Origin: Trypanosoma brucei
Taxonomy: Eukaryota
Assembly (NCBI GenBank): GCA_000002445.1
Contig: CM000208.1
Location: 1,312,001-1,376,000, forward strand
Length of the DNA stretch: 64,000 nucleotides
Reading direction: 5' to 3'
In this document: positions 17,493 through 57,455 of the stretch, in pieces
Position numbering within the stretch: the first letter of the stretch is position 1
Layout: every line of letters begins with the position of its first letter
Program-made: the position numbers and the translations under genes
The notes under the pieces: model-generated
What the model was told of the DNA's origin: nothing
What the model saw: only the letters and a program-made list of their open reading frames with translations
Database searches by the model: none

Positions 17493-19283
17493 ATGCGGAA
17501 CTCGCTCATTCAGCATACGCGAAACCTGTCAGCGACAAAGCAAATCACGGGGATTGTCTGCGACCACGTGGATGTCTTCACTTGGGGCCACTCCCCTCCT
17601 GAACAGCACGGCAATAAGTTTTCCTCAGGGAAAGCAACAGCGCCATTCTACAATGCGGGACAAAGGCGCTGCACACTCTGTGATGACCGTCTAGAAACTT
17701 CCTTCTCTGCTCACTGCGGCTACGTGGGGCATGTGGCGCGAGTGGGTATACTGGAGCGTGCAATGGAAATACTACAAAAGGGGGAAAAACGTGCGGCGAA
17801 TGGAAAGAGTGGTGGTTTAGGTGGAAAAATAACAGATTTAGATGAAAGCATTAAGGCACTTGTGGGCACCTGGTGGTCTCGATTAAATGATACAAAGCGG
17901 GAACCGGCACTCGACTACAAGCGCATACCATCACTCAGCGCATCTACGACGAAAAAGCGATTGTGGCGTATGCGTTTCCTGCTGCAGTATTTGCGTGATA
18001 GAGGTATTATCCGCTACAGTTTGACTCCGGCAAAGGTAGCTGGCGCGGGAGATAACGCGTTTGTACGATCTGCCCGTTTCGAGAGAAGTGAGATGATTGG
18101 AGATAACATTGTAAAAGTTGTGGTCCCTGACCGCTTAGTTCGGCTCTTCCCTGCGGATGAGGGCGGTGTGACATATAAATTGGCTTCTATTCAACAACTG
18201 CTTGACAGTAATGAGGGATTATTGGAAATATACGACTATCTTGGCCTCAACAACATCATCGGCGTGAGGCTTCCAAACAACAAGACGAAGTCAGACGTTG
18301 TGGAGGCTTTGTTTGGTGAACTGCAGACATTTCTTTGGGCAAGCGAGTTGTCCTGTGGGTCGTGCCAGTACCCCGCATTTCCTACTGCTGAGCACCGTTA
18401 TGTGCGCGCGTTAGTTGATCACTTATTGAATGAGCTTACGCATATGGTTATTATGTGGCGTGTTGAGAGCACCCTCGAGAACTCTAAGGAATATCTTGCC
18501 AAGTACCTTCTACAGGGCGCACGTCAAAATGGTAGTTTTTCTACTAGTGCTAGTGGTGCTACAATCGTAAAGGAGGTGGATTGTGACCGTTCCCGCTACG
18601 CTGTCTTGCCGCTGCTTTTGACGTTTCCTTACTCGACATCATCTGCCAATAAATCAGCGGGAGGAAAGCAGCCACCGCTTCAATCTTCGAGTTTGGCTGC
18701 AGCGAAAAGTGTGCAGGAAAGAGGGACGCCGCGGATGTTGTTTACCTCACCAGTAGCTATGCCAGCCGTTTTGCATTCGCATTACAACCCACCCCTTCGT
18801 ATTGTGCGAACCATTAAGGATTATCAGCGTGAGATTTTAACGGTACTCGAAGAGGAGGAAGTTGTGTCTGCATTAATCCCTTGTACAGATTCTTCGTGGG
18901 GGATGAAAGAGGGAAATATGAATTCGCGGGAAACTGGGAGGAGGAAACCGCCACATGGGCAGATCCGCGCCCCATGGCACGAGTTGGCACTGGAAAAATA
19001 TCCAAGATGGCGGTGTGACACTGAAGAAGCGGTGGTACGCCAAGCCTTGGAGCTTCGACTCATGCAGCGGAAGGTTTACACCAAAGAGACCAATTGGAGG
19101 GCATTAACTACCGCCATGGCTCAACGTCTCCTTCCGAATTCCCCATTGGAAGTAGATCCAGTAGGTGTACGGCCTGTTAGACAAACCGGAAGGTTGCTGT
19201 TGACTTTTGAAGGGACTACTGAGCGTAGAGCGGCACTCGCTACTAGCATGTGTTTTCCGTCGCTAGCACAATCGGCCGGCTGA
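17493..19283 (+). CDS. RNA-editing endonuclease-like protein: U1-type C2H2 zinc finger plus RNase III domain (596 aa); KREN3/KREPB2-like
   Basis: ATG at 17493. Zinc finger CTLCDDRLETSFSAHCGYVGH (C-x2-C-x10-H-x5-H). RNase III signature FERSEMIGDNIVKVV with the acidic residues intact. Paralogous to the ORF at 55839. The assignment to editosome endonuclease KREN3 comes from architecture and remembered gene order; unverified. Confidence 0.7.
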   Translation: MRNSLIQHTRNLSATKQITGIVCDHVDVFTWGHSPPEQHGNKFSSGKATAPFYNAGQRRCTLCDDRLETSFSAHCGYVGHVARVGILERAMEILQKGEKRAANGKSGGLGGKITDLDESIKALVGTWWSRLNDTKREPALDYKRIPSLSASTTKKRLWRMRFLLQYLRDRGIIRYSLTPAKVAGAGDNAFVRSARFERSEMIGDNIVKVVVPDRLVRLFPADEGGVTYKLASIQQLLDSNEGLLEIYDYLGLNNIIGVRLPNNKTKSDVVEALFGELQTFLWASELSCGSCQYPAFPTAEHRYVRALVDHLLNELTHMVIMWRVESTLENSKEYLAKYLLQGARQNGSFSTSASGATIVKEVDCDRSRYAVLPLLLTFPYSTSSANKSAGGKQPPLQSSSLAAAKSVQERGTPRMLFTSPVAMPAVLHSHYNPPLRIVRTIKDYQREILTVLEEEEVVSALIPCTDSSWGMKEGNMNSRETGRRKPPHGQIRAPWHELALEKYPRWRCDTEEAVVRQALELRLMQRKVYTKETNWRALTTAMAQRLLPNSPLEVDPVGVRPVRQTGRLLLTFEGTTERRAALATSMCFPSLAQSAG

Positions 19284-19977
19284 ATCGTCATTGGAGGTTT
19301 GCTTATACCTGCGCTTTGGCTTCTTTCTGCGAAATACTTTCACCGGTGCGCTTTTGGCTTCGGTTTTTCCTCTGTGTGGAGTGACGGCATTTGTTAACGA
19401 GCTGTGTTTGCCCTGCACCGAGCATTAAATTTATGGACTCGCCAGAGTTGCGCGTGCAGGGGAGTTGCTTAACTGTCAATTTAGTTACTGGATCCCCTAA
19501 ACTGAATTGTTTGGCGCTCCGCACGTTTTGTCACGCATAGGTGGTTATGGCGGTTCGTTGCTCGTGAAAATTTCACCTCTGTGAAGGAAAACTTGTGGAA
19601 CCACCGCTCTTCCTGAAAGATGCCACTTTCTCCTCCCTGTGGATGATCAGTGGTTGAATTGTAGATATTGAAAGCATCTATATGGCTTTATTGCGAGCGG
19701 AGTGCTCTGAAGAGGGAGTTGTGACCGGTGGGGCAAGCGGCGCCCTGTTCAGGTAACATTCCTTGTTACTTTTCCCTATCATGTCGTGGACTTGCTGGGC
19801 TGCTCGTTGTTCTTTTTTTGTTGTTCCGAAGTGTGAGAAAGGAGGATAGTGGGAAACCATTTAGCAAGACTTCTTGTCGTATTCCGATGGCTGCGGTGAT
19901 GGTCCACGGGGGGCCGCTTGTTGGTGTGAGCGGTGGTATACCACTGTCGTGTTTTATTATTTAAGTGGTTTCTCTTT

Positions 19978-20020
19978 GTTTTCGTTTGACTTGGCTTCTT
20001 TTTTTTTTTTTATAGGACGC
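19978..20020 (+). promoter_or_regulatory. Poly(T)/pyrimidine tract upstream of the first S18 gene (candidate trans-splice acceptor region)
   Basis: ctctttgttttcgtttgacttggcttctttttttttttttat, about 130 nt upstream of the ATG at 20146. Confidence 0.45.
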
Positions 20021-20145: not shown

Positions 20146-20607
20146 ATGTCTTTAACCCTCCAGAGCGAAAGCTTCCAGCACATTGTGCGTCTCCTCAACA
20201 CGAACGTTGAGGGCAAACGCAAGGTCCCCTTTGCACTACGGATGGTGAAAGGTATTGGTATCCGTTTCGCATACATGGTCTGCAAAAAGGCTGGTGTTGA
20301 TGTTGAGCGCCGTGCTGGTACGCTGTCACCTGAGGAGCTTGAGAAAATCTCTGAGGTGATCGCCGATCCCGCGAAGTTCAAAATCCCCGAGTGGTTCCTG
20401 AATCGTCAGCGCGACCCTAAAACTGGAAAGACGGAGCACCTGACTAGCTCGATGGTGGATACACGCTTGCGTGAGGACCTGGAACGGCTGAGGAAGATCC
20501 GTGCGCACCGTGGTGTTCGTCACGCCTATGGTCTGCGCGTTCGTGGTCAGCATACTTGCACGTCTGGCCGCCGTGGTAAGACTGTCGGTGTGTCCCGCAC
20601 CAAGTAG
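20146..20607 (+). CDS. RPS18: 40S ribosomal protein S18 (uS13), copy 1, 153 aa
   Basis: ATG at 20146. Full-length match to eukaryotic S18: ...[37 protein letters not shown]...[13 protein letters not shown]... Confidence 0.95.
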
Positions 20608-20864: not shown

Positions 20865-21326
20865 ATGTCTTTAACCCTCCAGAGCGAAAGCTTCCAGCAC
20901 ATTGTGCGTCTCCTCAACACGAACGTTGAGGGCAAACGCAAGGTCCCCTTTGCACTACGGATGGTGAAAGGTATTGGTATCCGTTTCGCATACATGGTCT
21001 GCAAAAAGGCTGGTGTTGATGTTGAGCGCCGTGCTGGTACGCTGTCACCTGAGGAACTTGAGAAAATCTCTGAGGTGATCGCCGATCCCGCGAAGTTCAA
21101 AATCCCCGAGTGGTTCCTGAATCGTCAGCGCGACCCTAAAACTGGAAAGACGGAGCACCTGACTAGCTCGATGGTGGATACACGCTTGCGTGAGGACCTG
21201 GAACGGCTGAGGAAGATCCGTGCGCACCGTGGTGTTCGTCACGCCTATGGTCTGCGCGTTCGTGGTCAGCATACTTGCACGTCTGGTCGCCGTGGTAAGA
21301 CTGTCGGTGTGTCCCGCACCAAGTAG
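20865..21326 (+). CDS. RPS18: 40S ribosomal protein S18 (uS13), copy 2, 153 aa (identical protein)
   Basis: The track ORF begins upstream at 20763, but homology begins at the internal ATG at 20865. The protein is identical to copy 1 and the nucleotide differences are only synonymous (for example gagctt versus gaactt). Confidence 0.9.
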
Positions 21327-21628
21327 GCGTAGGAACTCCACCATAGGAAGTATTGTTTGTCATGCTTTTATTCGTGGTTGTTGTCTCTTTTTTCTGTTTT
21401 CATGACTTGGTTTAATTTGTTGTAGGAACCACCTCGTCAGTATCTGGTGGAAGACCCCATGTATCACATTGTCTACCGTTGGTTTTATCACTTTAAAAAT
21501 CTCTTTCATTTTCTATCACCCCTCGGTTTGACATAATCGCTGCGCACTATTCTTATTGTTCGCGCGGTGAAGTGTGTCAACGTTGTGTTTCTGTAGTATT
21601 ACGTTGTGAGGAATTGTATTCCCCGAGA

Positions 21629-24600
21629 ATGTCTATTTCCTACAAAGAGCTTATTGCTCTTCGTCGTGCACATTTGGCTCGCCAAGGGCAAAACGCACCG
21701 TTATCTCCAGGTCGGTCTGAGTTGCAGGCTTCACAGGTAGGTGCCTCCTCTGAGACCGCAGTGGTTAGGGTGGATGATGTTTCTCCTCAACTAGAAATCG
21801 AGGGAAGACCCCAAGAGACACTCCCGGAGTGGTTAGTGGATGAGCAGCAACCAACTGTTGGGCTTAGTCATCTTCCATGGTCCCAGTCAGTGGAGGGAAG
21901 ATACACGACCGAGGAGGAGGTCCCCCGGGCTGAAGAACCAAAGGTCATGGTTCCTCACGAAACCATTAAGGGTGATTTGCCACGGATGGAAGTGATGAGA
22001 CGCTGGCGTCGGAGGTACGACAAATATTCTCTCCTGGAATTGCTCAAGGAAAAAAACGTCGTTGCCGACGGTAGGTTTTCTTGGGAAGAATCCGAAGCCA
22101 ACCAGTCACTTCTTCCTCTTCACGTTTTTGACAACGTAAGTTACGAGGAACTTTCACCGAGTGATTGGATGAGCAAGAGGGATGAGACGGGCGGTGTCGT
22201 ATGTTTAGCTTTACCTGACGCCAATGTATGTTCGTGGGTTCGGGGGTGGGTGACGGGATGGGACGAAGAGACCAACGTGTTGACTGTGCGCCTGTGTGAC
22301 GCGGGTGCCGCCACGGGTGACCCCAAACAAACAAAAGGGACCGTTGTGCGGCTTCACCGCTTGTATGTGTGTTTTAATGCAGAGAACCCGGAAAACTTTG
22401 CGGAACGGTTTGCGGGGGCGTACCGCATGCGAAATCTGCTGAAAAGTGTCCTTAGGCAGCAAACATTTGTCGATGCCATTCCAACAGATGAATTTCAGAC
22501 GGTGGACCCGTACGCACTAGAACGTGTGCATCAGTTGTGTTTGAATACGCCGAAACTCCTCCAAAAACAAGATTTGCTGCAGGTGACCAAGGTTCTAAAC
22601 GATGTACGATCGGACTACTCCCATGTAATGAACCGCGAGCTATTGAACCATACAGTGAAAAACGGCGCGCTCCAAGAGCTTCTGGGAGGTGCGGAACTTC
22701 CAGTTGATAGGCCACATGTCCAAGTGCAGAAATGCGGCGTGCACGAGCTTCGTCACAATTGCTTCCGAAGTATCGTGAGTTCTTTTCTATCCAACTCAAT
22801 TACTGCCCGAAGTGAAATCGCTATTGCCATTTTGCAGCGTGTGCGCGAGGGTAATGAAGTCTTGATGGCTAGGAGAGTATTCCGAACGAGCAAGGTCCCA
22901 GATGAACAGGTTACACTTACTTTGAATGCGTTCGAGGATGTACAGGTTACGTCTGTGCGGGAAAATGCTCAGTTTGTGCGCGAAAAGTGGATTCCCGGCA
23001 TTACTGAATTTATCAAACGCATATGCTCTGACTGCGATGAGAATGAGGATGTAACACTGAAGGTACGCGAGTGTGACTACGAGACATGCAAAGTGCGTGG
23101 CCTCATGAACACCATCACACTACAAATGGAAGATACCTTGCGCTGGGTGCTGACGAACGCACTTTCAGAGTTTGCGTCCTTTGTAGAGGAGTGTGCGAAG
23201 TACACTGTGAAGGTGCACAGCATGTTTGATGTTGAGGTTGTACCTCATCCAGACTTGAAACGCGCAAGGATTGTGCCACTCTTCAAGGTTTCTCTCGTAG
23301 ATGGCGAAGAACGGAATTTGGTGTGGAGCTCATCAATTTCTGACTTCTTATCGATGCTTACGGAAGTTGTCTACCGATGTCTAGCGTTACATACCGGTGC
23401 TCGTTCGGTGGAGCGGCGCCTGTTTACCTTCCTCTTTGACAGCCACACGGCGTTTCTTTCTTCCCTGCACGACGATGATCCAGCGTGCACGTCGTGCTTG
23501 CGCAGGCTGACGGAAGCTGTTGAACGGGCTGGAAAACCTTTGGATGAATACATCGCGACCTTCGGTGACGTTCAAGAACTGATTGCACTTGATGTAAAGC
23601 AATACATAGAGGATTTCAAGCAAAAGTTCCCCACGACGAAAGGTGTGGAGGAAGAGATTCTGCGATATAACCAAAAGCAAAAGGATGTGTCCGAGATGAT
23701 ACCCCGTCAGAAGGACCTCGGTCTTTTTCAGGTTGACTGCACAGATTTGAAAAAGCGGCTCACATGGAAGTGTAATCAAGTTGTCAACTCTATTTTGGAT
23801 GTGATGCTTAATCGTGCAAACACCAAGGCTACGTTTGTGATTAATTCCTTCCAGGAGCTTCGCGACACCCTTGTTAAACCGACTCGGACACCTGAGGAGG
23901 TCGTAGACCGCCAGGACTTCATCAAGGCAATTCCGGAGAAGGTTTTTGACCTTCAGGCTGTGATTAGTGAAATTCAGCAGGTTTATGCCATCCTAGATAC
24001 ATTCCATGTCCCGTTTAGTGAAGAAGACTTCAACAAGAAGTGGACAGCGATATCATGGCCAGCACGTCTCGATGATGACATCATTCAGAGACAAGTCGAT
24101 CTCGAGCAGACGAAGCGTAGTCTTACCCTCAACTTGCGGAAGTCACAAGAGGCGTTTAGTGAGAAGGTGGTGCAGTTGCAACATACGGTGGCCTCATTCA
24201 ACCGTCGCTCCAATGTGAACAAAATGAATGAGATTGTAGGGGATGTCAACAACATATTGGAAAACATCAGACAACTTTTGGAGACAGCAAACGAATTCAA
24301 CACGCACGAGAACCTCTTACTTCTGGAGAAGACAGATTACACGATGGTACGGGATCTCCAGTCCGACTTCGAACCGTATGCCTCGTTGTGGCTCACTGTG
24401 CACGATTGGAACGTTGCCTTGCGTGAGTGGCAGGCTCGACCATTTCCTGAGATCGATGCAGAGGCCATGGAGAAGCGAGTAATGAACAATTATCACACAA
24501 TATCAAGATGCTGCGTGGATCCAAAACTCACCGAACTACTAACTGAAATCGCGAAGAAGACGAAGGCGAAGATAGAGGAATTCCAACCCATATTGCCTTT

Positions 24601-27600
24601 CGTTAAGTTTCTCCGCACCGAGGGCATGAAGGATAGACATTGGGACCAAATCTCCAAAGAGATTGGCCGCGATATCCGCCCAGGAAAGACAATCATGACG
24701 ATTAGTGATGTAAAACCTTTGATGACAGTTGAGTATGAAGAAATTTTGCTCCGTATATCGGAGGTGGCGTCCCGCGAGTACCAGATAGAGACTTCACTGA
24801 GGAAGATGAAGGAGGAGTGGGAAAAGATATCTTTCGACGTCCAGCCGTACAAGAGCACAGGGTGTTATCTCGTTACGAAGGATGCGGTGGACACGATACA
24901 AGAAGTGTTGGACGACCAAATGCTTATCACCCAATCCCTTGGCTTCTCACCTTTTAAGAAAATGTTCGAAGCGGACATTGCAGCCTGGGAAGCGTCCCTT
25001 AAGCGGGTGCAGTGCGTAATGGATGAGTGGCTTATCTGTCAAAAGGCGTGGCTGTACCTAGAACCAATTTTCCAGTCGGAGGACATCACACGCCAACTGC
25101 CTAGGGAGACGGAGCGCTTCAAGAAGGTTAACGGGAACTGGCATTACCTCACCAATGAGGCCCATGAGAAAAAACTAGTGTTAGATTTCTGCGCAATACC
25201 TGACAGTTTGAGTAAATTCAAGGATAATAATGATGAACTGGAGCTAATTCAGCGCGGGTTAAACCAGTACCTTGCAAGCAAGAGGAGTGCATTCGCTCGG
25301 TTCTACTTTCTTTCGGATGATGAACTGCTTACGATCCTTTCCGAGGCTCGTGATCCAAGGAAGATACAGCCTCATTTCCGCAAATTGTTTGAGAACATCA
25401 TGGAGATTGATATGCGTGACCCCGGAAACGAAATGTTCGGTATGTACTCGCAGATGCGCGAGTACGTGCCTTTCGACCAGGGTATTCTTCCCCGTAGAAA
25501 CATTGAGAATTGGCTCAGTGAGATCGAACACATGATGCGGATTTCGATTCGCTCTCAACTGTCAAAGGGCGTGAAGGACTGTGCCGAAAAGGGTCGTCAG
25601 AATCTTATTCTCAATGCTCCTGGCCAAGTTGCTATCGCTGTAAGTCAAATCATGTGGACAGCGAGCTGTGAGAGCAGTATCAAGGAGCATGGGTCTTTGG
25701 AACCCTATATGCCGAAGGCAAGGGAAAATCTAATGAGTCTTGTGGAAACGGTACGGCAACCTCTCTCTACGTTGCAACGTGTGAACATTAGTGGTCTCAT
25801 CACTATTGAAGTTCATGCAAAGGATATTGTGGAGAAGTTAACCGAAGATAAAGTTGATAGCATTTACGCATTTGAATGGATTTCTCAACTTCGCTCGTAC
25901 TGGGAAAACAATGACTGCTATTTGCGTCAAGTTGAGGCGCAGTTTCAATATGGTGGTGAGTACCTTGGCAACAGCACCCGTCTTGTCGTGACGCCACTTA
26001 CTGACCGTATCTACCTGACGCTCACTGGGGCCATGCATATGTTCCTTGGTGGTGCACCTGCAGGTCCAGCTGGAACAGGTAAAACAGAAACTGTGAAAGA
26101 TCTTGCCAAAGCGGTCGCAAAGCAGTGCGTCGTGTTTAACTGTCAGGAAGGTATGACGTACGCATCGATGGGTAAATTTTTTAAGGGTTTGGCACAAGCG
26201 GGTGCATGGGCGTGTTTCGATGAATTTAACCGTATTGACGTAGAAGTGCTCTCCGTTGTGGCGCAGCAGGTTTCAACGCTTCAAGAAGCCTCTCGGTCGA
26301 AGCAGTTTCGAATTCCCTTCGAGGGGACAGAAATTATTGTTGATCCCTCGTATTCTGTGTTCATCACGATGAATCCAGGTTACGCTGGACGTACGGAGCT
26401 TCCAGATAACCTGAAAGTTCTGTTCCGCCCCGTTGCGTGTATGGTACCGGACTATGCTATGATCGCCGAAATTCGTCTATTCTCCTTTGGATACTCCAAC
26501 TCTCGTACATTGGCCCAGAAAATGGTTGCGACATTCCGGTTGAGTTCTGAGCAGCTTTCATCTCAAGATCACTACGATTTTGGTATGCGTGCTGTGAACA
26601 CTGTCATTTCGGCTGCTGGGCTAATGAAGCGCGAGTGCCCCGATGAAGAGGAAGATGTCCTGCTACTCCGGGCGCTGCACGATTCCAATGCACCTAAATT
26701 TTTGGACGAGGATCTCCTTTTGTTCTCTGGCATTATCTCCGATTTGTTTCCCGGTGTCGAGCTTCCGACGCGCGATTATGGTTCTTTGCTCTCGACTCTA
26801 AAAGAGAAAGCTGTAACCTTCCGCGTTGAACCTACGGACATGTTCCTCAAGAAGTGCATACAACTCTATGAGATGAACATACTTCGGCACGGCCAAATGC
26901 TGGTTGGACCAACAATGGGTGGGAAGACATCTGCTTCTCGCGTTCTGCAGGCCGCAATGACAAAGCTTCGAGTGGAACTAAATGAGGAACGGTACGCCCA
27001 GGTTTGCATACATGCTCTGAATCCGAAGTCTATTACGATGGCCCAACTCTATGGTGGCTTTGACGATGCCACTGGTGAATGGCGCGACGGGCTCATCGGT
27101 GAACTTTTTCGGATAGCCGCTCGGGACACAACGGACACCAAGCAGTGGATTTATTTTGATGGGCCAGTGGATGCCCTGTGGATTGAATCAATGAATACCG
27201 TGCTAGACGACAACAAGAAACTTTGTCTGATATCTGGTGAGATTATTGCCATGACACCGTACATGAGTTGCTGGTTTGAAGTGGAGGATCTGGCTGTTGC
27301 GTCTCCCGCTACTGTGTCTCGCGCCGGTATGATTTACATGGAACCTTTGGGGTGTATTGGTGTAGATGCCTTCATCAAGACATGGAAGGATTACCGCCTT
27401 CCCTCGAGCATGGAGCCGTACAAGGATGAGTTGGAGAAACTATGCTCTGAACTCTTTCCCCTTCTTATTGAATTTGTGCAGCAGCAGGTGGTGGAATACT
27501 GCCCTTCCGTGTGGCCCAATCTTTTGATTTCATGCTTTAACATATATGAGGTGCTTTTGGAACCCTTTACACCCACGCGAATCGCAGAGGTACCGGAGGA

Positions 27601-35412: not shown

Positions 35413-35451
35413 CTTCATTTATGCCTGACCACCGGACAGCGCATCAGTAAC

Positions 35452-36187: not shown

Positions 36188-36607
36188 GTGAGTGCTGACG
36201 GGTCCGAAGACTTGTGCGATGATGTGTACCGCTTCTTCAGGGAGGGCGTTGTTTGCTCCGAGAAGGACCCCCTCGGCGCGTGGAAGGGAAGTCTTGGCGA
36301 GAAAACTTTTAAAATTCTCAATGCGCAGTTTACAGAAGTGTTAAAATCGCCAAAGAGTCATGGCCTTGTCAAAGAACAGTCTCCTCGGCACAGCGTGTGG
36401 TGGACGCTGAATGTCGACGGCGTGAACTACATGCGGAAATACCTCTGCTTAGACGGGGATGTGATGCCGCCCCGTGACAAAGTGGATGCGGAGCCACACA
36501 AAAGCGACGCCACAAATGGCAGTTGTGGTGGGCGCGGAGGGGGTGGGAGACGCGGTGGATTCGGTTTTTTTTGGGAGGGGTGGTCCTCCTCCTACAGCAG
36601 AAGATAG
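36188..36607 (+). pseudogene. Degenerate S10-like paralog between the two S10 genes; no ATG start (begins at GTG directly after an in-frame TAG); probably a pseudogene or highly divergent relic
   Basis: Translation ...DVYRFFREGVVCSEKDPLGAWKGSLGEKTFKIL...WWTLNVDGVNYMRKYL...GGRGGGGRRGGFGFF aligns with S10 along its whole length but is strongly diverged. In-frame TAG at 36182..36184, then ACA, then GTG. The first in-frame ATG lies deep inside the conserved core. Confidence 0.6.
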
Positions 36608-46549: not shown

Positions 46550-47020
46550 GTTTCTAACATTTCTTTTTTCCAAACTTGCTTTATTAAAGATGCTGGGCCT
46601 GGGGATGTGCCGTGTGTTATTTCACGTGATGTCTCAGGGGGTGAGAGCATGGTGCTCTGCAGCAGCTCTTGTCTCCCTCTTTTTTACCCTACCCTCCGTC
46701 TCTTGTTCTGCCTATTTTTTCATTTGGATATATTAGTTTAAGCTACCAGTATTATTCTCCTAATACTTCAATATTATTTACAACAAAACCCCCTTTTGAC
46801 TGCTCGATTGGAGGTGAAGGCCTACCCCTCGAAGGTTTAGGGGGTTTCTAAAGGTTAACTCAAATCGATGTCTTAGTGGACTCGTACACCCTTGGTAGGG
46901 TTTCCACGCACATTCAAAGGTGGTTGCCTACAAACTATTTTATGTTTTATTTGTTTTTTTTTCACTACCGCCGATGTGTGGGAAAGTATCGTTCAGTATT
47001 TTCGTCCTTCTTACTTACCG

Positions 47021-47066
47021 TCCTTCTCGTATCTCCCCCCTCTCCTTTCCTTTTAACCCTCGCTTG
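47021..47066 (+). promoter_or_regulatory. Polypyrimidine tract plus AG dinucleotides immediately upstream of the ATG at 47094
   Basis: tcccccctctcctttccttttaaccctcgcttg followed by ...gtaAGaaacatAGgAGgATG. Confidence 0.5.
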
Positions 47067-47093
47067 ATTAATGTTTGTAAGAAACATAGGAGG

Positions 47094-48818
47094 ATGACAC
47101 CCGGAGCAATGTACTTATCGTCCGTAACGCTAACTCTCTGCATAGTGCTGTTGGCAACAGGGGCACGGCAATCAGCTGCCGCTGCAGCGGCGGTCGGGGA
47201 GACTGTAATATTAGATCAAGGATCCAGCGAGTCCATACGTATTGTGGAAAGTGGTGGTTCAACCACGGACGCTTCTTTTGACTTTGTTGGATTGTGGCCG
47301 CATGGTGAACACCGTGAAAGTGATGCCATGTTCTTTGACGAAGAGGACGCCAAGTATGAGAAATGGATGGTTAAGGAGAGAGAAAAGAAACGGAAGCAGG
47401 AAAAGGAGAAACGAGAGGAAAAGCAGAAGGCAATGAACAAGTCGAAGGATAAGCCCCGAAAGCCACCAAAAGGAGCTTCCACCTTTCAACTCACTCAAGC
47501 TGCTGTGCGAGCCCGGACAACCGAGCGTCGCAGTCGACTGAGAGCACTGAGGAAACCTAACTCTTTATTATTTGATGCTGCATGGAGCGCTGTTCTCGAG
47601 GATTCAGACAATTTACGAAAGTTGCTCTCCGCGGATTCTATTATGCGCTCTCGGGAAGGGGAGGGGAACAACCCTGAATCGCAGTATGTCCAACTCCTCT
47701 CTACGGCATTCAGCCACACGGTGAGAAACTTAACGACCGAGTCGCGCAGTGATTGGATTTCTCCGCTGATATACGCTTTGCCGTTTCCAGTACTTCTGGA
47801 CAACGGGGCATTGGTGTCTGCGGAGCAGGAGGTGCGGGCCCTAATGACGGACTTGCAAGTAATGAAAGCGACACCGGTTCCTCAGCCGTCATCCAATGGC
47901 AGTGAAAAGAAGGTGCCAAGCAGCACAGATGTGGAAGCCACAACGCAGTTGGTTGAAGACAACCTCCGAATTGCTTCCACCACTATATCCGCAAGCAAAA
48001 GCGCTCACCGCGTCGTGGCGCAGCTTGCTCTGCCTATCATGGGGCATGCGAAGAGCAGTGTCTCCGACCAACTCCGTGAAGTTGAGAAGCAAATAAGGGC
48101 AAACGATGAGTCTACAGTCGCTAAGCGCCGGGAGCTGAAGGACTTAGCGAAACTGAAGAAGGTGGTGAAGGCCACCAAGGACCGCATTCACGCCGCTGAC
48201 GGTGAGTTGCGAAACGCCTACTTCTCTACCACGCCGATGCTGTCGAAGAGTTCCTTTCTAATTTCCCTGGCTCTAATTTGCCGGTTACGTCTTTCAAGAA
48301 ACACGTACGTCGATGCTGTCGATATGCTTCCGGGCATAGACGCTTTTGCTGATTTTACTGGGTCGATGAGGGCCGAGCTGTATTCTTTTCTCTTTTATCC
48401 ACTAGGAGTGGGCGTTGCCGTATCAGCGGCTACAACGTGGTGCTTGTTGTCAACACGTCAGCTGATAACGAAGAAACTCAAACGGCAAGCCGGGCGTCTG
48501 CTACAACAAACTTCAACCAGTGGAGGTAGACCCGGTAAAGTTTCAGGTATAACGATGTTTGCACTGCGAGCGAATCTGCTGTTGGAGGCACTGTCCCCTC
48601 TGTTTGTACCACTAGTTACCTTCTATATCATCAACAGAACGTTAACTAAAGATTTGTTGTATCCGATTGTAATCACTGTGAAGCCGGCCCAGAGGCTAGT
48701 TTTGGGTTTCGTGGTGATAAGTGTTCTTGTGGCGAGTGTAATCGTGTCACGTGTGCTCACGGCCGTAGACAGGTGGTCCTTGAACCGACACAATGCCAAT
48801 AAGAGAAAAGTGCAGTAG
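47094..48818 (+). CDS. Hypothetical secretory/membrane protein (about 574 aa): signal peptide, K/E/R-rich charged segment, C-terminal hydrophobic helices
   Basis: The track ORF starts at a GTG at 46920. The first ATG in a good context is at 47094 and gives MTPGAMYLSSVTLTLCIVLLATGARQSAAAAAA, a classical signal peptide. Charged stretch EKWMVKEREKKRKQEKEKREEKQKAMNKSKDKPRKPPK. C-terminal hydrophobic segments (LYSFLFYPLGVGVAVSAATTWCLL; LVLGFVVISVLVASVIVSRVL). Confidence 0.5.
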   Translation: MTPGAMYLSSVTLTLCIVLLATGARQSAAAAAAVGETVILDQGSSESIRIVESGGSTTDASFDFVGLWPHGEHRESDAMFFDEEDAKYEKWMVKEREKKRKQEKEKREEKQKAMNKSKDKPRKPPKGASTFQLTQAAVRARTTERRSRLRALRKPNSLLFDAAWSAVLEDSDNLRKLLSADSIMRSREGEGNNPESQYVQLLSTAFSHTVRNLTTESRSDWISPLIYALPFPVLLDNGALVSAEQEVRALMTDLQVMKATPVPQPSSNGSEKKVPSSTDVEATTQLVEDNLRIASTTISASKSAHRVVAQLALPIMGHAKSSVSDQLREVEKQIRANDESTVAKRRELKDLAKLKKVVKATKDRIHAADGELRNAYFSTTPMLSKSSFLISLALICRLRLSRNTYVDAVDMLPGIDAFADFTGSMRAELYSFLFYPLGVGVAVSAATTWCLLSTRQLITKKLKRQAGRLLQQTSTSGGRPGKVSGITMFALRANLLLEALSPLFVPLVTFYIINRTLTKDLLYPIVITVKPAQRLVLGFVVISVLVASVIVSRVLTAVDRWSLNRHNANKRKVQ

Positions 48819-49530: not shown

Positions 49531-49680
49531 ACTAAAGGCGTCACTCTCCCTGCTTATTAGGAGAAATAGGGAGAGGGCGGAGGAGAATACTTCTTCGTTT
49601 TCGCTGGCGTGAGGCTAACCGACTTGTTTTGTCCCCTCGTTTGGCCGAAGGATAGGTTACCTGTAGTTTGGTGCGACTTT

Positions 49681-52600
49681 ATGCGTGTGACATGTGTAGT
49701 TGCTTGCGGCTTACGCTCTAGTAGTTCCGACCTGAAGCGGCGGCGAATACGTCAGTTGGAGCGGCAATATGGTCCCGCGTGGCGCTACACTGCAGGGTGG
49801 ACATCGCAACTGTCGCCAGTGGGTATGTTTGACGCATTGGAAGTTCCGGTTTTTCCACCAAACGTGGTGCAAACGCGTGAATTAGATCACGTGGGATGCG
49901 CTAGTGCACCGCGCACTACCGTGGTGTCAAGGGGCCTCGTACAAAACGGAAACCCTAGAGTAAAAGATTCACAACCAACTTCAGTTTTAGACGAAAATAA
50001 CGCTTACTTCAATCCACAACATGATGCAGGTACAAGTTCGAGCGATGACCCCTTGTTCGAGTTTTTAAGGCATGATGATGAACACAGTGCCCTTCTGCTA
50101 GCCATGTGGACTTCCCTTTATCGGTGCTGCGTTCACGCATCCGAGTTGTCCGAGTTTCTTGCATTTCGTGTGCGGTGGTTTCTGCATCATCTCATTCATA
50201 TGCGTGCAACAGCAGCCGCGGTCCGATTTTATCATCGTTTACTGTTGTTGGGCGTACATCTTCAAAAGAAGGATGTGTCGTTGTTGCTTAGCAGTTTACC
50301 CTATGAGCATTACGTAGTGAATGTGGACTTTAAAGGTGAAAGCAAGAAGAAATGTAGCCGTTTTCGTACGATGCGACAGGCTGATACCACTCATGTAGAC
50401 AAAAAGAGTGCTACAAATGGTGATAAGGGAGGTACTGTTGTTTTTAGCGGTGATGGAGGAACTGTTGGTGAGGAGGAGCGTCTTCTGTTCGCTTCAACGA
50501 TAACGTCCACCGGAGCGGACACTTCTTGCGATACTAGTGCTAGAGTGTGCCCGGCAGGAGACACATGCGGGGTGGAGTCGGTTGATTTTGAGTTGACACC
50601 AGCGGGTAGCCGATACTTGCGAGACCAACCAGAATGGGTTAAGCGCTGGGTTCTTTATGAGGCATCCATGGGTAATATTGATCTCTACGATGAGGAGAAC
50701 GCCACCACCCTGCGCGCCGACAAATATGTTGATTCATCTTCCGTGGGATTAGATTGTGGTGATGAATGCACACCATCTGAGGTGAAATGGGCCGAAGGGT
50801 GTATCGATGTGGTTACCCTTCTTAATCATTTGATGCTTCTGCATGATGGAAATCATTTAATCCACAGAGAAACTAGAAAACGTCGAGTGAATGGTAAGGG
50901 AAGATCTGGCATAACTCTAAGAGGAGAAATGCAGCGACACTATTGGGCAGAGGCCCTCCAGATTGCAGGTGCATTCCTCAGTGCGCGCAGCTCAAGGGGA
51001 CGGGAGAGAAAAGCGGAAGAGGGACAATATGAAGTGGGTTGCAGCGTACCGCCTGAGTTCCGCAGTGAGTTGTGTCGTGCGTTAGTTGCCGCTGGCAGTT
51101 GGAAGGTGGCACTCCGATGGCTCAAAGTTGCTGAGCAGTACAGAGTGGGTTTCACGCATAGTGAGTACGCGAGGATTTTCCTTTGTCTTGCTGAGTCAGA
51201 GCCTTGGGAAACATCTCGTGCTGCGGAACGTTTTGTTGCTCGTAATATGATTCCTCTCTTGCCAGAAGAAACCGTATGTGGTTACGCGTCCCGCGCCATG
51301 TGGTTGGCACATGTTTGTTCCCAAAGGGATAATAGGGTGGAAGAATGTTTGGAATTGATGGAATCTACCTCCGGAAATCTCCCTGCGTGCGTAAAACAAA
51401 GTATAGTGTACATCAAGCTCGCTGCGTCATTACTTCGCGTTGATGCTGACAGGTTTTTTGCCGCTGCTGCGCTCCAACAGTTTGAAGCGGCTTCAATTCG
51501 CTTAGGTGTGTTTCATCCCGCGGCCGATCTATCGCAGCGGCATTCCCCTCCCATACAGTTGGTGACTAGGGATATGGCGAGCGCCGGGAGCGGCGCTCTT
51601 CTTACTGTTCAACTGCAGGATTCCTTTGTCTTAGTGTCCATAGCCCTTCCACGCGTTGTAGAACTTGTATCGGTCGCCGCTGCTTCGCAGGAGGATGAAG
51701 TGCAGCTGGCCACCCTTCTGGCTGACGTGCTGTACGGTCCCAATGGTTTGTGGAAGTTTTTTTCTGATGTATGCCTTGTGGGAGAAAGCAAGCAGTTAAC
51801 AAGTCACCGGACTTCAGAAGTCGTGCGAATTTCTTTGTACATGTCACTGTGTCTACTAAAAATTGGTGTTGCGCTTTGCCGGGTGGTTGGGCACGAGAGG
51901 CAAGGCGTTCAAGGAAATCCTCATTTGAGGGAAAAACATTTGACGCTTATATTGGGATTGCTTGAGGAGAGTCTTGGCGCCATTCCGGCGCGAAACGCTG
52001 TGGAGATCAAAGATCGACGGATCATGTTATCACTGGTAGCCACATCGGCCAAGCTAACTAAACATGTTTTTCGACAAATCGGTGTTTATCCCTGCAATGA
52101 GAAAGTTATTTTCGGCTCATTCAGCGAGGAAACTTCTGAAACTGTTGCTTTGATGCTCCGTATTCACGTGCTACTGTGGCGGCGCGTTAGTTCACTCCGT
52201 AGGCATCTTCAGCTTGCCGCAGGGTCGGCGTTGCGTGCTGTGTTCCGACCAACTAGTGAGTTGGGTAAGCACGTACGTGGGCATATACCCCGGCATCAAC
52301 AGCAGGAACTAGACTCGATGCTTGCTTATGGGCGACTACGGAAGTACGGAGAGCGTAGGGCGGGTGCAGCGATCGCGACAAAATCAAAATCGGAGGCGCG
52401 TGTGCATTCACCCGAGGATGTTGCGCGAATCAAGGCGGTCGCGAAAACGCACAGAGTTGTTTATGCATTGTCTCTTCAGCACGTAAACAACGGTGCGGCG
52501 CTCGAGCGTGACTTAATAACTTATCTCAGTAGGGCAAGTTGGGACGGTGCTCTTACGATGCTGCACGTTTCTCTTCACCACTTACGCCTTCCGCATGGTA

Positions 52601-53766
52601 CATTTGGTCTCCCCTTCTTTGCGGGTGTGTTGGCTCGTTTGTGTAAAGCACCCCACAGAACGAAGTCGCTCTGGTTTCAAGCAATTGGGGTGTACTGGGA
52701 CGCCGTGGAGCACGTCCCTCGCCCACACGTATCCGCCAATACAAGTCATGTTGTGGATAGTAAGAGCCAACTCCGCTTACACGAGAGGAATGTTCTAACA
52801 CAACTGCTACTGCCATTACTGCGCTTTAGCGTGTCGACAAGGCAAAAGGAAATGGGATGGTCGTGGATGAGGCGTTGGGACTTGATGCACAAATCAGATG
52901 AACGTGATGTGGAGTATGAAGCACTGAGCGTGTGGGCACGATCGGTGCTTGAGGACCGCTCGGCACTCAAGAGGTGTCAACGGCTGATGGAAAAATATCA
53001 ATATCAACACATGAGGCAAAAAAACCTACCGATGATACCACCGCTGGAAAATATTCTGTGCGACGTTGCAGTCAATCATGCTGATTGGTGTGCTGCTCTC
53101 CACGCACTGGAGACGGTGTTTTGGACACCACAGCGTGGAGGTGACTTCATCACGACACCACTCCCGCCGCGAGCGGCAACTGCGGTGCTTCGTATACTTT
53201 GCAAGGCACCCACGAACTTGTGCAATACGGCTCGCCGTCTCCGAGAGATTCAGGGAAGCTGCTGGGATTTACGTAGCGCCAACAGTCTGCTTCTATTGTT
53301 GGTAAGGCAGAGGCGTTGGCAGCTTGCATTGCAACACGTTGCTGAAATGCTTCCAGTTGTGCAGAACGGCCGCCAAAAGTCTGATGTGGTGGGTGGGAAT
53401 AGCGTCTTCGATATGTGCTTGGAGGGTGATGGCAAGACAGAGCAGGCTTTATTCCTAGTTCATGGGTTGCGGGCGTGCGCAAATGGAGGTCGTGCGGAGG
53501 AGGCAGCGACGTTGTATGACCTTGTTAAACAATTGGCTGGCTTGGAAGCGGTGGTTCGTGCTGCGGACATAAACGTTGAGAGTAGTGTAACCTATGCTCT
53601 AAAGCGGCCGGAAGACATGTTGTTTTTCATGTGCAACCAAACTGATCAACCACAAGATACACTGGCATGTGACGAAGATGAGCGAATGCGCATGCTAGTT
53701 GGACAAGCGCGTGTTTACTTTCTCCGAGCGATGACTAAGAAAACTCTGCGTTGCAACAGGCGATAA
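49681..53766 (+). CDS. Large hypothetical protein (about 1362 aa), R/S-rich presequence-like N-terminus, helical-repeat body
   Basis: The track ORF begins at a GTG at 49609; the first ATG is at 49681 (MRVTCVVACGLRSSSSDLKRRRIRQLERQ...). No catalytic motif recognised. The body is leucine- and arginine-rich helical sequence, possibly PPR/TPR-like. Confidence 0.5.
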   Translation: MRVTCVVACGLRSSSSDLKRRRIRQLERQYGPAWRYTAGWTSQLSPVGMFDALEVPVFPPNVVQTRELDHVGCASAPRTTVVSRGLVQNGNPRVKDSQPTSVLDENNAYFNPQHDAGTSSSDDPLFEFLRHDDEHSALLLAMWTSLYRCCVHASELSEFLAFRVRWFLHHLIHMRATAAAVRFYHRLLLLGVHLQKKDVSLLLSSLPYEHYVVNVDFKGESKKKCSRFRTMRQADTTHVDKKSATNGDKGGTVVFSGDGGTVGEEERLLFASTITSTGADTSCDTSARVCPAGDTCGVESVDFELTPAGSRYLRDQPEWVKRWVLYEASMGNIDLYDEENATTLRADKYVDSSSVGLDCGDECTPSEVKWAEGCIDVVTLLNHLMLLHDGNHLIHRETRKRRVNGKGRSGITLRGEMQRHYWAEALQIAGAFLSARSSRGRERKAEEGQYEVGCSVPPEFRSELCRALVAAGSWKVALRWLKVAEQYRVGFTHSEYARIFLCLAESEPWETSRAAERFVARNMIPLLPEETVCGYASRAMWLAHVCSQRDNRVEECLELMESTSGNLPACVKQSIVYIKLAASLLRVDADRFFAAAALQQFEAASIRLGVFHPAADLSQRHSPPIQLVTRDMASAGSGALLTVQLQDSFVLVSIALPRVVELVSVAAASQEDEVQLATLLADVLYGPNGLWKFFSDVCLVGESKQLTSHRTSEVVRISLYMSLCLLKIGVALCRVVGHERQGVQGNPHLREKHLTLILGLLEESLGAIPARNAVEIKDRRIMLSLVATSAKLTKHVFRQIGVYPCNEKVIFGSFSEETSETVALMLRIHVLLWRRVSSLRRHLQLAAGSALRAVFRPTSELGKHVRGHIPRHQQQELDSMLAYGRLRKYGERRAGAAIATKSKSEARVHSPEDVARIKAVAKTHRVVYALSLQHVNNGAALERDLITYLSRASWDGALTMLHVSLHHLRLPHGTFGLPFFAGVLARLCKAPHRTKSLWFQAIGVYWDAVEHVPRPHVSANTSHVVDSKSQLRLHERNVLTQLLLPLLRFSVSTRQKEMGWSWMRRWDLMHKSDERDVEYEALSVWARSVLEDRSALKRCQRLMEKYQYQHMRQKNLPMIPPLENILCDVAVNHADWCAALHALETVFWTPQRGGDFITTPLPPRAATAVLRILCKAPTNLCNTARRLREIQGSCWDLRSANSLLLLLVRQRRWQLALQHVAEMLPVVQNGRQKSDVVGGNSVFDMCLEGDGKTEQALFLVHGLRACANGGRAEEAATLYDLVKQLAGLEAVVRAADINVESSVTYALKRPEDMLFFMCNQTDQPQDTLACDEDERMRMLVGQARVYFLRAMTKKTLRCNRR

Positions 53767-54568: not shown

Positions 54569-55414
54569 ATGGCACAGTCTTTGGTGTGGCGGTACTTGGG
54601 ACCGGAGGACACGCATCGGTGTCTCGATGCGCCTGATGTGCCTTCTGTTCGGAACCTGTTGGTTGAAATTGACGACGGAATGGATGGAAAGCTTATCAAC
54701 TGTCGCAACTACAATAAGGGGCAGCTGATGATTGTGCTAGACATGCTTGCGCATCTAATTGTGTTCACTAAAACATGTTCCATGTCGCTAGAGAAGGTTA
54801 GTACAATTGTGGGTATTATGCTGGAGTTGCACCGAGAGAGCATGTCGAATCAGTATACACGATCCCAATCGTATCACCGACTGCGTGAGCTGATGCTACT
54901 CCACAGTGTTCCCCGCCCACCGTTCTCATGTGGCATCTTTAGTGTGGCGGATGTACAGCATATAGACGAATATCTCTTATTGTCTTATTTCCGCCATTAC
55001 AAAATGTATGTGTACGCTTTCGTGCCTCAGCGTTTAGCGAATATTCACAGCGTTTCCGTCGGGCACAACCACTGTGTACCTCCTTTAGGACTCCCCGCCC
55101 TTACGACAGCGACGCCACGGGCAGAATGGATAGCGAAAGTGGAAGACACACACCGACAGATGGAGGAACGGCAGATGGAAGTGGAGGATGTGCGGTCTGC
55201 TGAATACGAGGAAGAATGGTTGAAACACCGCTACCTTAACGGCACGCACTACAGCGAGGGGTTGAGGGAACAGCTGCAGAGTATAAAGAGGGATGTTTCT
55301 GATAAAGCACTCAACCAACTGGATTTGATTGAGGCGCGTCTGGTGGAAATAGAGAAGAAGGTGGAGATAGTGCAGCAGCGACAGGATGGGAAGGGTGGTA
55401 AGCGAAAAAAATAG
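54569..55414 (+). CDS. Hypothetical protein (281 aa) with C-terminal coiled coil and a basic tail
   Basis: ATG at 54569. C-terminus: EDTHRQMEERQMEVEDVRSAEYEEEWLKHRY...LDLIEARLVEIEKKVEIVQQRQDGKGGKRKK. Codon usage is consistent with its neighbours. Confidence 0.4.
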   Translation: MAQSLVWRYLGPEDTHRCLDAPDVPSVRNLLVEIDDGMDGKLINCRNYNKGQLMIVLDMLAHLIVFTKTCSMSLEKVSTIVGIMLELHRESMSNQYTRSQSYHRLRELMLLHSVPRPPFSCGIFSVADVQHIDEYLLLSYFRHYKMYVYAFVPQRLANIHSVSVGHNHCVPPLGLPALTTATPRAEWIAKVEDTHRQMEERQMEVEDVRSAEYEEEWLKHRYLNGTHYSEGLREQLQSIKRDVSDKALNQLDLIEARLVEIEKKVEIVQQRQDGKGGKRKK

Positions 55415-55838
55415 GGGTGCCGGCACCTGGTTTTCTCTTCCTCTTCTTCTCTTACTCACTTGTACGCACAGCATGGATAACCCAAAGTGCATGTGGTTCA
55501 TATCAAAGTATCCGGACCACAAAGGGATGGTTGTTGGTGTGTGGTGGTGCTATGTATAAAGTAGAAGGTTTTTTTGGTTGTTTATTTCATCTGTTTTGCT
55601 CGGATGGACAATCGTTGGATTCAACGTTGGCCCCGGGTGCTGGTAAAGCCAAGGTACAGTGTACACTGCGCAAGGAACCACGAACTTCAGTGTTCACTTA
55701 CCTCCCACCACATATTATGTTTTACTCCCCTCCTCTCCTCTCTTCCCCATTGTTATTAACCTTAATTTTCATGTGTTTTTTCTCTTAACTATTCAAATAT
55801 CATGAGGTACTGCTGGCAATTTGAAGTAAGGCATTACC

Positions 55839-57455
55839 ATGGAGCGCGGAGGGCGCTGCCTCTTCAGGAGGTGGAGTACCCGCGCATTGCCCTCCGTGTC
55901 TCACACACTACGATGTCGTGGAACAATTTCTAACTCAGGTGGGGAGGGAAATGATGCAATCGCTGAACCTCGTCGCGTGCGTCTGGTGCCGTCTGCACCT
56001 CATGGGAACAATTCTTCGGAGCTATTTTCTGTCGGTGTGGATCCCAGAAGTCATACATGTGATCCCGATGATCCATATTCCCACATCCAAATATACAGAA
56101 AGGACATGGTAGCGGACGCCGGTGGTCGAGCGTTTCAACTAAGTGTTGATGTTCCGTTGAAAAAATTTGTGGACCTCTTCAGTGATTTCGATGGAAAACG
56201 TTGTAAGCTCTGCAACGAAAGCTACATGCAGTGGCATAGTCATAGCAGTGTTATTCCCCACTCAGGGAGGGAGGCACTTATGCTTGAGATGGTCCGTGCA
56301 TACTGCGGCCTACCGGAGGATATTGCAAAAATGTGGTGGCATCGACTCAATACGTCGCCCGCGTTCAATCGCATCCCGAAACTGAGTCATGACAATAGTC
56401 ACACCAGAAAGCGCAGGTTACAGTACCTTCTGAAATTTCTGAAAGATAGGGACGTGATCCGCGACACATTCAACGTTCACAACAGCTCTGGAACTGCTGG
56501 TCGTTCGTGGGAATTCGAACGTCTCGAATGGATTGGGGATAATGTTGTGAAGTATGTGTTTAACGATCGGTTTAATGTCATATTTCCTGTGCGTGAGGGC
56601 GGTATTCGGGGCCGATTGGGGTACGCGCAATTTATGATAGATGGCAATGATGGCTTGGCACGCGCCTATGACTACTTGGAGCTTCAGAAGCTGACTCTAA
56701 GTGACCGGGTTGTGAGCAAATTCAAGAGCGATGTGGTGGAGACATTGTTTGGTGAACTTCAGCTTTATATTTGGTCTTCAGAGACGGACGCCGGCACTAC
56801 CTGTTACCCACTTCCATTTACTGGCGAGATGTTTTCCCTTCGTGCTCTCGTGTGGCACGTGATGGAGGAGTTGGCACATGTAATGTTTATGTATCACGTG
56901 GAACACGCGCTTGCGGCTATTCAGCGTGTTGTAAGGGAAAATCAACTGCAATTTATCCGTGCAGATCCTGCACTGCGCGGTCATGCGGACCTGCAGAGTG
57001 AGTTGGCAAACACGGTTTACGCTAAAAAAGCTGCGTCTGGGCCAAGCAAACTCACGTCGACAAAAGTGTCTCCTGGTGCCCGTTTCAGGGACGGTGGTGC
57101 CTCGTTTTACCACGAAGCATCGAACTATGATGGTTTCAAACGTGTGTGCACTCTTGGGGGTCTCCTGCCCCGACCATTTTCACCCCGTGAGTTGACGTCC
57201 ACAACGTCTTTTCTTCCTCATTTGCAGGAAGACAGTGCGATGACACGCCGAGTGCCTGTGGACTGGACACGTAAACTTTTTGACGATTGCACTGGCAACG
57301 CCACGAAGAAGCCCGGAGCCCCCAACTTTTTACCATGGCAGGCCGTCACGCTACAGCCCCGTTCCCGTTGTTCTGCAGAGGAGGCTGGACGGTCAACTTC
57401 ACGCCTGGGTATTCCTGAATTGAAGGACGCACTACTAGTGGCCGAATTAGTTTAG
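55839..57455 (+). CDS. RNA-editing endonuclease-like protein: U1-type zinc finger plus RNase III domain (538 aa); KREN2/KREPB3-like, paralog of 17493..19283
   Basis: ATG at 55839. R-rich presequence-like N-terminus (MERGGRCLFRRWSTRALPSVSHTLRCRG). Zinc finger CKLCNESYMQWHSH. RNase III signature FERLEWIGDNVVKYVF. Shares ...LFGELQ...W... blocks with the 596-aa paralog. Confidence 0.7.
   Translation: MERGGRCLFRRWSTRALPSVSHTLRCRGTISNSGGEGNDAIAEPRRVRLVPSAPHGNNSSELFSVGVDPRSHTCDPDDPYSHIQIYRKDMVADAGGRAFQLSVDVPLKKFVDLFSDFDGKRCKLCNESYMQWHSHSSVIPHSGREALMLEMVRAYCGLPEDIAKMWWHRLNTSPAFNRIPKLSHDNSHTRKRRLQYLLKFLKDRDVIRDTFNVHNSSGTAGRSWEFERLEWIGDNVVKYVFNDRFNVIFPVREGGIRGRLGYAQFMIDGNDGLARAYDYLELQKLTLSDRVVSKFKSDVVETLFGELQLYIWSSETDAGTTCYPLPFTGEMFSLRALVWHVMEELAHVMFMYHVEHALAAIQRVVRENQLQFIRADPALRGHADLQSELANTVYAKKAASGPSKLTSTKVSPGARFRDGGASFYHEASNYDGFKRVCTLGGLLPRPFSPRELTSTTSFLPHLQEDSAMTRRVPVDWTRKLFDDCTGNATKKPGAPNFLPWQAVTLQPRSRCSAEEAGRSTSRLGIPELKDALLVAELV

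Follow-up and report, generated by a model that had tools for sequence, protein, structure and literature searches.

The editing endonuclease genes KREN3 and KREN2 of Trypanosoma brucei bracket a 38-kb block and probably derive from an old local duplication

Two open reading frames (ORFs) in a 64,000-nucleotide stretch of Trypanosoma brucei DNA (assembly GCA_000002445.1, contig CM000208.1, positions 1,312,001 to 1,376,000 of the forward strand) are the genes of KREN3 (17493..19283) and KREN2 (55839..57455), i.e. two catalytic endonucleases of mitochondrial RNA editing. We refer to the whole stretch as the window and count positions from its first letter. A reading made from the DNA sequence alone (the sequence-only reading) had located both ORFs correctly on the forward strand, had assigned them to the KREN family, and had proposed that they arose by an ancient local duplication followed by substrate specialisation. 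The family assignment has become an identification of KREN3 and KREN2 themselves, and we put the probability of the reading as a whole, with the local-duplication origin as its inferred part, at about 0.97.

Exact-sequence look-up shows that the 596-aa product of the first ORF is 100% identical to the T. b. brucei TREU927 protein EAN77949.1/XP_822777.1, annotated as "RNA editing complex protein MP67", and that the 538-aa product of the second is 100% identical to the TREU927 protein EAN77960.1/XP_822788.1, annotated as "MP61". The calculated masses (66.6 kDa and 60.8 kDa, respectively) fit these names, and the window belongs to chromosome 10 of TREU927. The 538-aa protein is also matched over its full length (1249 bits, ~99% identity, a handful of substitutions) by PDB chain 9z0h_C, which bears the name "RNA editing complex protein MP61", and named orthologs of both proteins are present throughout trypanosomatids. 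Dicer-like and mitoribosomal RNase III proteins are not among the best matches, which are editosome proteins. KREN3 and KREN2 also bear the names KREPB2 and KREPB3, respectively.

To connect the MP names with the KREN names we used published gene identifiers: KREN3 is Tb927.10.5320 and KREN2 is Tb927.10.5440 (PMC9508840, supplementary table; PMC12936278), eIF6 is Tb927.10.5300 (PMC3694164), and NLP, a protein of 957 aa with an AT-hook at residues 214-226, is Tb927.10.5450 (PMC3064810). In the window an eIF-6 ORF (11816..12562) lies two genes upstream of the 596-aa ORF, and the ORF directly downstream of the 538-aa ORF encodes 957 aa with GRP at residue 218, which identifies it as NLP. With eIF6 (5300) and NLP (5450) as anchors, the "MP67" ORF is KREN3 and the "MP61" ORF is KREN2. 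A review table from 2026 lists KREN2 as TbMP67 and KREN3 as TbMP61 (PMC12936278); the GenBank and PDB names, the masses, and the gene-order anchors indicate the reverse, and the two aliases look swapped in that table. Both genes were already known in full, and their identification as such is nothing new.

In a BLASTP comparison KREN2 and KREN3 are 35% identical over 295 aa, with 52% positives (E = 7e-47). The aligned part begins at the zinc finger and extends through the RNase III/RAM region as far as residue ~346 of KREN3; the N- and C-terminal parts of the two proteins show no significant similarity by BLASTP. Each protein possesses the matrin/U1-type C2H2 zinc finger that the sequence-only reading had recognised (ligand patterns in Table 1); the two fingers align ligand for ligand, and all four ligands of the KREN3 finger are invariant in 12 KREN3-type sequences. 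The Pfam scan returned no zinc-finger model for either protein at E<=1, and the assignment rests on the pattern, its conservation, and the definition given in the literature (PMC9508840). As to the N-termini, the first 40 residues contain seven R/K in KREN2 and three in KREN3, a composition that may be called weakly presequence-like in KREN2 and appears not distinctive in KREN3.

The RNase III region is represented by the motifs FERSEMIGD (residues 196-204) and SDVVEALFGE (267-276) in KREN3 and FERLEWIGD (226-234) and SDVVETLFGE (297-306) in KREN2, and alignment of the paralogs confirmed both the first motifs and the second acidic pairs. Aligned with E. coli RNase III, both proteins have all five catalytic positions (E38, E41, D45, D114, E117) occupied, namely by E197, E200, D204 (nt 18078-18104), D268 and E271 (nt 18291-18320) in KREN3, and by E227, E230, D234, D298 and E301 in KREN2. 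The catalytic acidic residues are thus intact, as had been claimed, with five of five in each protein. Across the 12 aligned KREN3-type sequences E200, G203, D204, D268 and E271 do not vary, and conservation of E197 is at least 90%. The Pfam RNase III model (PF00636) gives one match in each protein, to residues 197-275 of KREN3 (23.6 bits) and residues 227-305 of KREN2 (16.8 bits), with a gathering score of 27, and the precomputed Pfam field is blank for nearly all named KREN2/KREN3 orthologs in the protein collection. With such sub-threshold scores, domain-based automatic annotation would leave both proteins unlabelled.

An AlphaFold2 model of KREN3, calculated from the 12-sequence alignment, is confident for residues ~50-345, which comprise the zinc finger (predicted local distance difference test, pLDDT, ~85 over residues 50-100), the RNase III helices, and a long C-terminal helix. 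Helices are modelled at residues 263-287, 299-330 and 332-345, the last two (299-345) being confident, and the long C-terminal helix of the model corresponds to the published RAM (defined in PMC9508840). Residues 1-48 and 346-596 are modelled poorly, with pLDDT mostly <50. In a Foldseek comparison of the model with the PDB, four RNase III-type chains of the T. brucei RNA editing catalytic complex (RECC) RECC1 (9dei) rank first, with E-values from 7e-8 to 2.5e-3, and classical RNase III and Dicer structures rank after all RECC chains. A double-stranded RNA-binding motif (dsRBM), the mapping of which had been suggested along with that of the catalytic residues, was not detected: neither protein has a dsrm Pfam match at E<=1, and the model of KREN3 residues 346-596 shows no alpha-beta-beta-beta-alpha pattern, in what is a low-confidence region. 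The published domain table of KREN1-3 lists only ZnF, RNase III, and PUF (now RAM), and gives a role like that of the double-stranded RNA-binding domain (dsRBD) to the zinc fingers (PMC9508840).

According to the literature, the two proteins are the catalytic subunits of two U-insertion editing complexes, KREN3 in RECC3 with KREPB6 as its partner and KREN2 in RECC2 with KREPB7; these partners are non-catalytic RNase III paralogs, in which the RNase III domain is degenerate and devoid of the catalytic residues (PMC12936278; PMC9508840). In the mechanism put forward there (PMC6800513, PMC12936278, PMC9508840, PMC5416837), each complex would contain one KREN protein, and its single RNase III domain would dimerise with the degenerate RNase III domain of a dedicated KREPB partner. 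The heterodimer would have one active site, so that only the mRNA strand of the duplex between mRNA and guide RNA (gRNA) would be nicked, and the two zinc fingers would flank the duplex on either side, standing in for the dsRBD. Deletion sites are cut by KREN1 and insertion sites by KREN2 and KREN3, which have distinct but overlapping preferences; COII sites require KREN3 (PMC5416837). Mitochondrial import, incorporation into a ~20S RECC together with the KREPB partner, and gRNA-directed mRNA cleavage are properties of KREN proteins taken from the literature. KREN2 and KREN3 have already been characterised genetically and biochemically (knockouts, in vitro cleavage, in vivo site specificity), and structures determined by cryo-electron microscopy already exist for the KREN1 and KREN2 complexes.

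A related known system is KREN1 (TbMP90, Tb927.1.1690), which likewise combines a ZnF, a catalytic RNase III domain and a RAM and is, in its RECC, the one catalytic subunit of the heterodimeric RNase III; in the Foldseek comparison its chain 9dei_C ranks best against the KREN3 model. KREN1 differs in being larger (818 aa), in being encoded on chromosome 1, and in cutting U-deletion sites with KREPB8 and KREX1 as partners (PMC6800513; PMC5416837). It is also more remote in sequence (E ~1e-9, as opposed to ~1e-41 between KREN2 and KREN3): KREN3 finds MP61 with E 4e-41 and MP90 with E 7e-10, and KREN2 finds MP90 with E 7e-10. KREN2 and KREN3 are therefore closer to each other than to KREN1. KREPB4-KREPB10 share the U1/matrin-type zinc finger, the RNase III fold and the RAM helix, and are considered to have arisen by duplication and specialisation within the same family (PMC9508840; PMC5770545), but they lack the catalytic acidic residues (PMC6800513; PMC9508840), all of which KREN2 and KREN3 retain. 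Membership of either protein in this pseudoenzyme class was ruled out on that ground.

In order to place the two proteins in the family, we calculated a neighbour-joining (NJ) tree for 73 sequences, comprising named orthologs together with representative matches of an exhaustive HMMER search. The named orthologs of KREN3 and those of KREN2 form separate clades, with KREN1-like sequences outside both. In this tree, which is distance-based and has no proper outgroup, the two clades are separable in 60/60 bootstraps, and the side that joins them excludes all KREN1-like sequences, also in 60/60. A transcript of Trypanoplasma borreli falls within the KREN2 clade. Taken together, the tree supports, short of proof, an old split of KREN2 and KREN3, probably older than trypanosomatids. 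The exhaustive search was decisive for sampling: a word-indexed homology search with KREN3, followed by a 12-sequence KREN3 profile, found no KREN3 of Leishmaniinae, whereas HMMER recovered them, the matches being named by cluster look-up. The two orthologous groups also differ in rate. Between T. brucei and T. cruzi, KREN2 is ~74% and KREN3 ~52% identical, and the published identities of the partners are 81.7% for KREPB7 and 52.2% for KREPB6 (PMC9508840), which suggests that each pair of enzyme and pseudoenzyme evolves as a unit, KREN2-KREPB7 slowly and KREN3-KREPB6 fast.

A whole group of further KREN2/3-like sequences (P0086-P0092, P0013, P0016) belongs to neither of the two named clades and is placed by the NJ tree on the side of KREN3. 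The gene of P0013 (L014, 3828-5807; Logan SRR15674825), a KREN2/3-like sequence outside the named trypanosomatid clades, is located directly upstream of a dynein heavy chain of 4140 aa, i.e. in the context of KREN3 without the S18 genes, and BLAST scores it slightly higher against KREN2 than against KREN3. No second paralog was found beside the genes of P0013, P0016 and P0011, but their metagenome and Logan contigs of 16-21 kb are too short to bear on the tandem origin of the pair. In P0080, a protein of 3010 aa among the representatives from the exhaustive search, the KREN3-like region occupies residues 2452-2879, near the C-terminal end; most likely, adjacent genes of a polycistronic contig were fused here by gene calling.

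KREN3 and KREN2 bracket a block of 38 kb, as had been noticed (38,346 bp from start to start, with a gap of 36,555 bp between the genes), and we compared this arrangement with that in other trypanosomatids. T. vivax has both genes on one strand of contig SOPI01000403.1 at a distance of ~43 kb, in the order helicase > eIF6 > kinase > MP67 > S18 x2 > dynein heavy chain, and then CLAMP > MP61 > WSD protein > L24e. In Leishmania tarentolae (BLBS01000057.1) they occupy positions 356,740-358,605 and 416,077-417,789, 59 kb apart on the same strand and with the same immediate neighbours. The flanks in T. cruzi and L. major match too, and the right-hand neighbours CLAMP > MP61 > WSD protein > L24e are common to T. 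vivax, T. cruzi, L. major and L. tarentolae. In Phytomonas Hart1 and in Novymonas, the longest contig reported for KREN2 and that reported for KREN3 are equally long within each organism. Since linkage and gene order are shared by T. brucei, T. vivax and L. tarentolae, the KREN3-KREN2 arrangement predates the split of Trypanosoma and Leishmania.

The most likely origin of this arrangement is a local duplication, in the trypanosomatid ancestor or an earlier one, after which the copies were separated by ~11 unrelated genes and specialised. By chance, this specific pair would be expected within 38 kb of each other with a probability of ~0.3% in a core genome of ~26 Mb, and tandem duplication is the accepted origin of KREPB8 and KREPB10, which are adjacent on chromosome 8 (PMC6800513; PMC5770545); these two considerations favour local duplication followed by separation. 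The proposal of an ancient local duplication with substrate specialisation accordingly fits the separate clades, the conserved linkage and the distinct but overlapping site preferences (PMC5416837), while its "local" part is drawn from the linkage, as no DNA-level trace of the event survives. The shared strand, which had been offered as further evidence, adds little: all large ORFs of the window lie on the forward strand, as expected for one polycistronic unit.

Nothing contradicts the identification of the two genes; several points weigh against their local duplication. The self-comparison of the whole window revealed no trace of duplication of the two genes beyond a stretch of 33 nt at the conserved SDVVE motif, and the genes are not adjacent, with 11 genes and 36.6 kb between them. 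Gene order is generally well conserved among trypanosomatids, so the conserved linkage dates the arrangement without proving a tandem origin. The limits of the tree stated above belong here too, together with the several further lineages that it places between the KREN2 and KREN3 clades, and on the side of protein identity the Pfam RNase III model leaves both proteins under its gathering threshold.

The alternative that fares best is that the proximity is coincidental, i.e. that a dispersed duplication or a later rearrangement brought the genes near each other and the linkage has persisted through the general stability of trypanosomatid gene order. The eleven unrelated genes in between and the absence of similarity in the flanking DNA are in line with this account, the partner genes KREPB6 (chromosome 3) and KREPB7 (chromosome 9) are unlinked (gene IDs from PMC12936278), and the chance that any pair among ~10 ZnF-RNase III paralogs (45 pairs) falls within 38 kb is ~13%. 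The linked genes are, however, the two closest catalytic paralogs, to which the ~0.3% estimate applies; local duplication operates in the same family, as KREPB8/KREPB10 shows; and the ancestor shared by Trypanosoma and Leishmania already had the linkage. We therefore regard coincidence as unlikely. That the linkage (~38-59 kb, same strand) has been kept by selection, e.g. for one polycistronic unit that balances the dosage of the RECC2 and RECC3 endonucleases, seems very doubtful. The literature searched contained no discussion of the KREN3-KREN2 linkage, whereas the adjacency of KREPB8 and KREPB10 is discussed. A wider editosome gene cluster on chromosome 10 (KREPA4 5110, KREPA6 5120, KREN3 5320, KREN2 5440; PMC12936278) was considered and rejected: with each paralog pair counted as one locus, it amounts to two loci ~20 genes apart among ~16 independent editosome loci, which by this rough estimate is not unexpected.

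The interval between the two genes contains two pairs of genes for 40S ribosomal proteins, S18 and S10, and the sequence-only reading, which had recognised both pairs correctly, took them as a sign that the stretch is prone to duplication. Analysis of the DNA reveals a different picture. The S18 copies are 99.2% identical, but only over 20141-20630 vs 20860-21349, and the S10 copies are 99.8% identical, but only over 35449-35985 vs 36883-37420, in each case the coding sequence with a few flanking bases; the intergenic and untranslated sequences around the copies are unrelated. The S18 pair occupies the same position in T. vivax, T. cruzi and L. tarentolae, and T. vivax and T. cruzi have a pair of ribosomal L24e genes immediately beyond the block. 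Both S18 and S10 thus look like old tandem pairs kept alike by gene conversion or concerted evolution rather than products of recent duplication. Trypanosome genomes commonly carry ribosomal protein genes in two copies. A duplication hot spot, in which one regional propensity would explain the KREN, S18 and S10 pairs alike, has in its favour the presence of three sets of paralogs within ~40 kb. It is nevertheless highly improbable, given that the pairs are of different types (35% protein identity between KREN2 and KREN3, both with orthologs across kinetoplastids, as opposed to 99-100% identity confined to the coding sequence for S18 and S10), that the conserved position of the S18 pair is the pattern of old pairs, that the L24e pair is outside the block, and that the self-comparison of the whole window reveals no other repeats. 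The ribosomal pairs are unrelated to the endonucleases and represent a different phenomenon from the ancient, 35%-identical KREN pair.

Between the S10 copies we found a degenerate S10-like ORF that the sequence-only reading had overlooked. It is 73% identical to the S10 coding sequence over 248 nt and matches the S10_plectin Pfam model with 51 bits, and may be a copy in decay or else a paralog that has diverged. The gene IDs counted from eIF6 (5300) to NLP (5450) add up only if a small ORF such as this one has been given its own ID.

Classical RNase III enzymes (bacterial Rnc, yeast Rnt1p, Dicer/Drosha) share with the KREN proteins the catalytic fold, the ExxExxGD motif and a second DxxE pair, and some of their structures (3o2r, 2nug, 5t16) are weak matches to the KREN3 model. 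They differ in forming homodimers or intramolecular dimers with two active sites that cut both strands, and in using a dsRBD, whereas KREN proteins have one domain, a dead paralog as partner, a nick in one strand, and N-terminal zinc fingers in place of the dsRBD (PMC9508840). In sequence searches Drosha, Dicer and bacterial RNase III match KREN2 and KREN3 with E 0.3-0.9; together with their rank below the RECC chains and the lack of a detectable dsRBD, this rules out membership in the classical class 1 RNase III/Dicer-like group. The idea that one or both ORFs encode a KREPB-type pseudoenzyme or another RNase III (Dicer-like, the gRNA-processing mRPN1, or mitoribosome-associated), for which the Pfam scores under 27 and the undetected dsRBD might speak, has a negligible probability in view of the exact identity to named, experimentally characterised proteins, the five conserved catalytic residues, and Dicer and Drosha matches of E > 0.3.

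Table 1. Features of the KREN3-KREN2 region, in window coordinates
Feature	Position	Strand	Description or basis
KREN3 gene, Tb927.10.5320 (MP67)	17493..19283	+	596 aa; exact protein match; two genes after eIF6
KREN3 matrin/U1-type C2H2 zinc finger	17670..17732	+	C60-x2-C63-x10-H74-x5-H80; pattern match
KREN3 RNase III and following long helix (RAM region)	18060..18527	+	residues ~190-345; PF00636, alignment, model
S18 40S ribosomal protein, tandem pair	20146..20607, 20865..21326	+	identical 153-aa proteins; PF00416, 149.8 bits
Dynein heavy chain	21572..34057	+	ORF of about 4160 aa, start approximate
S10 40S ribosomal protein, pair	35452..35970, 36887..37405	+	identical proteins; PF03501
Degenerate S10-like ORF between the S10 copies	36188..36607	+	139 open codons, GTG start, no in-frame ATG
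IFT122	37834..41571	+	intervening gene
Three ORFs without Pfam matches	42449..46549, 46920..48818, 49609..53766	+	intervening
Flagellar C1a-32/CLAMP	54569..55414	+	intervening gene
KREN2 gene, Tb927.10.5440 (MP61)	55839..57455	+	538 aa; exact match; 9z0h_C; immediately upstream of NLP
KREN2 matrin/U1-type C2H2 zinc finger	56202..56261	+	C122-x2-C125-x9-H135-x5-H141; pattern match
KREN2 RNase III motifs, FERLEWIGD to SDVVETLFGE	56514..56756	+	PF00636, alignment with E. coli RNase III
NLP (Tb927.10.5450)	57958..60831	+	957 aa; WSD motif PF15613, 31.7 bits (cut-off 25.4), residues 806-922

These results change little in the understanding of the family, for which it is already accepted that KREN2 and KREN3 share an origin through duplication and specialisation. 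Their use is mainly that of a check, in that a lineage-specific enzyme family could be recognised from raw sequence by a first-stage reader despite sub-threshold Pfam scores. The additions are modest and limited to two: the dating of the KREN3-KREN2 linkage and its flanking order to at least the ancestor of Trypanosoma and Leishmania, and the rate asymmetry, with KREN3 evolving much faster than KREN2 in parallel with KREPB6 and KREPB7.

Among the remaining genes of the block, three are flagellar or ciliary, namely those of the dynein heavy chain, of IFT122, and of the central-pair protein C1a-32/CLAMP, and their co-occurrence here is probably coincidental. The orthologous dynein position in T. 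vivax, T. cruzi and L. tarentolae shows DHC_N2/AAA/Dynein_heavy Pfam matches. The WSD motif found in NLP is typical of partner proteins of ISWI, and a paper of 2015 on the T. brucei ISWI complex (PMC4646403) reportedly cites the gene ID of NLP. The protein was first described as a nucleoplasmin-like AT-hook protein involved in the control of variant surface glycoprotein (VSG) expression sites (PMC3064810).

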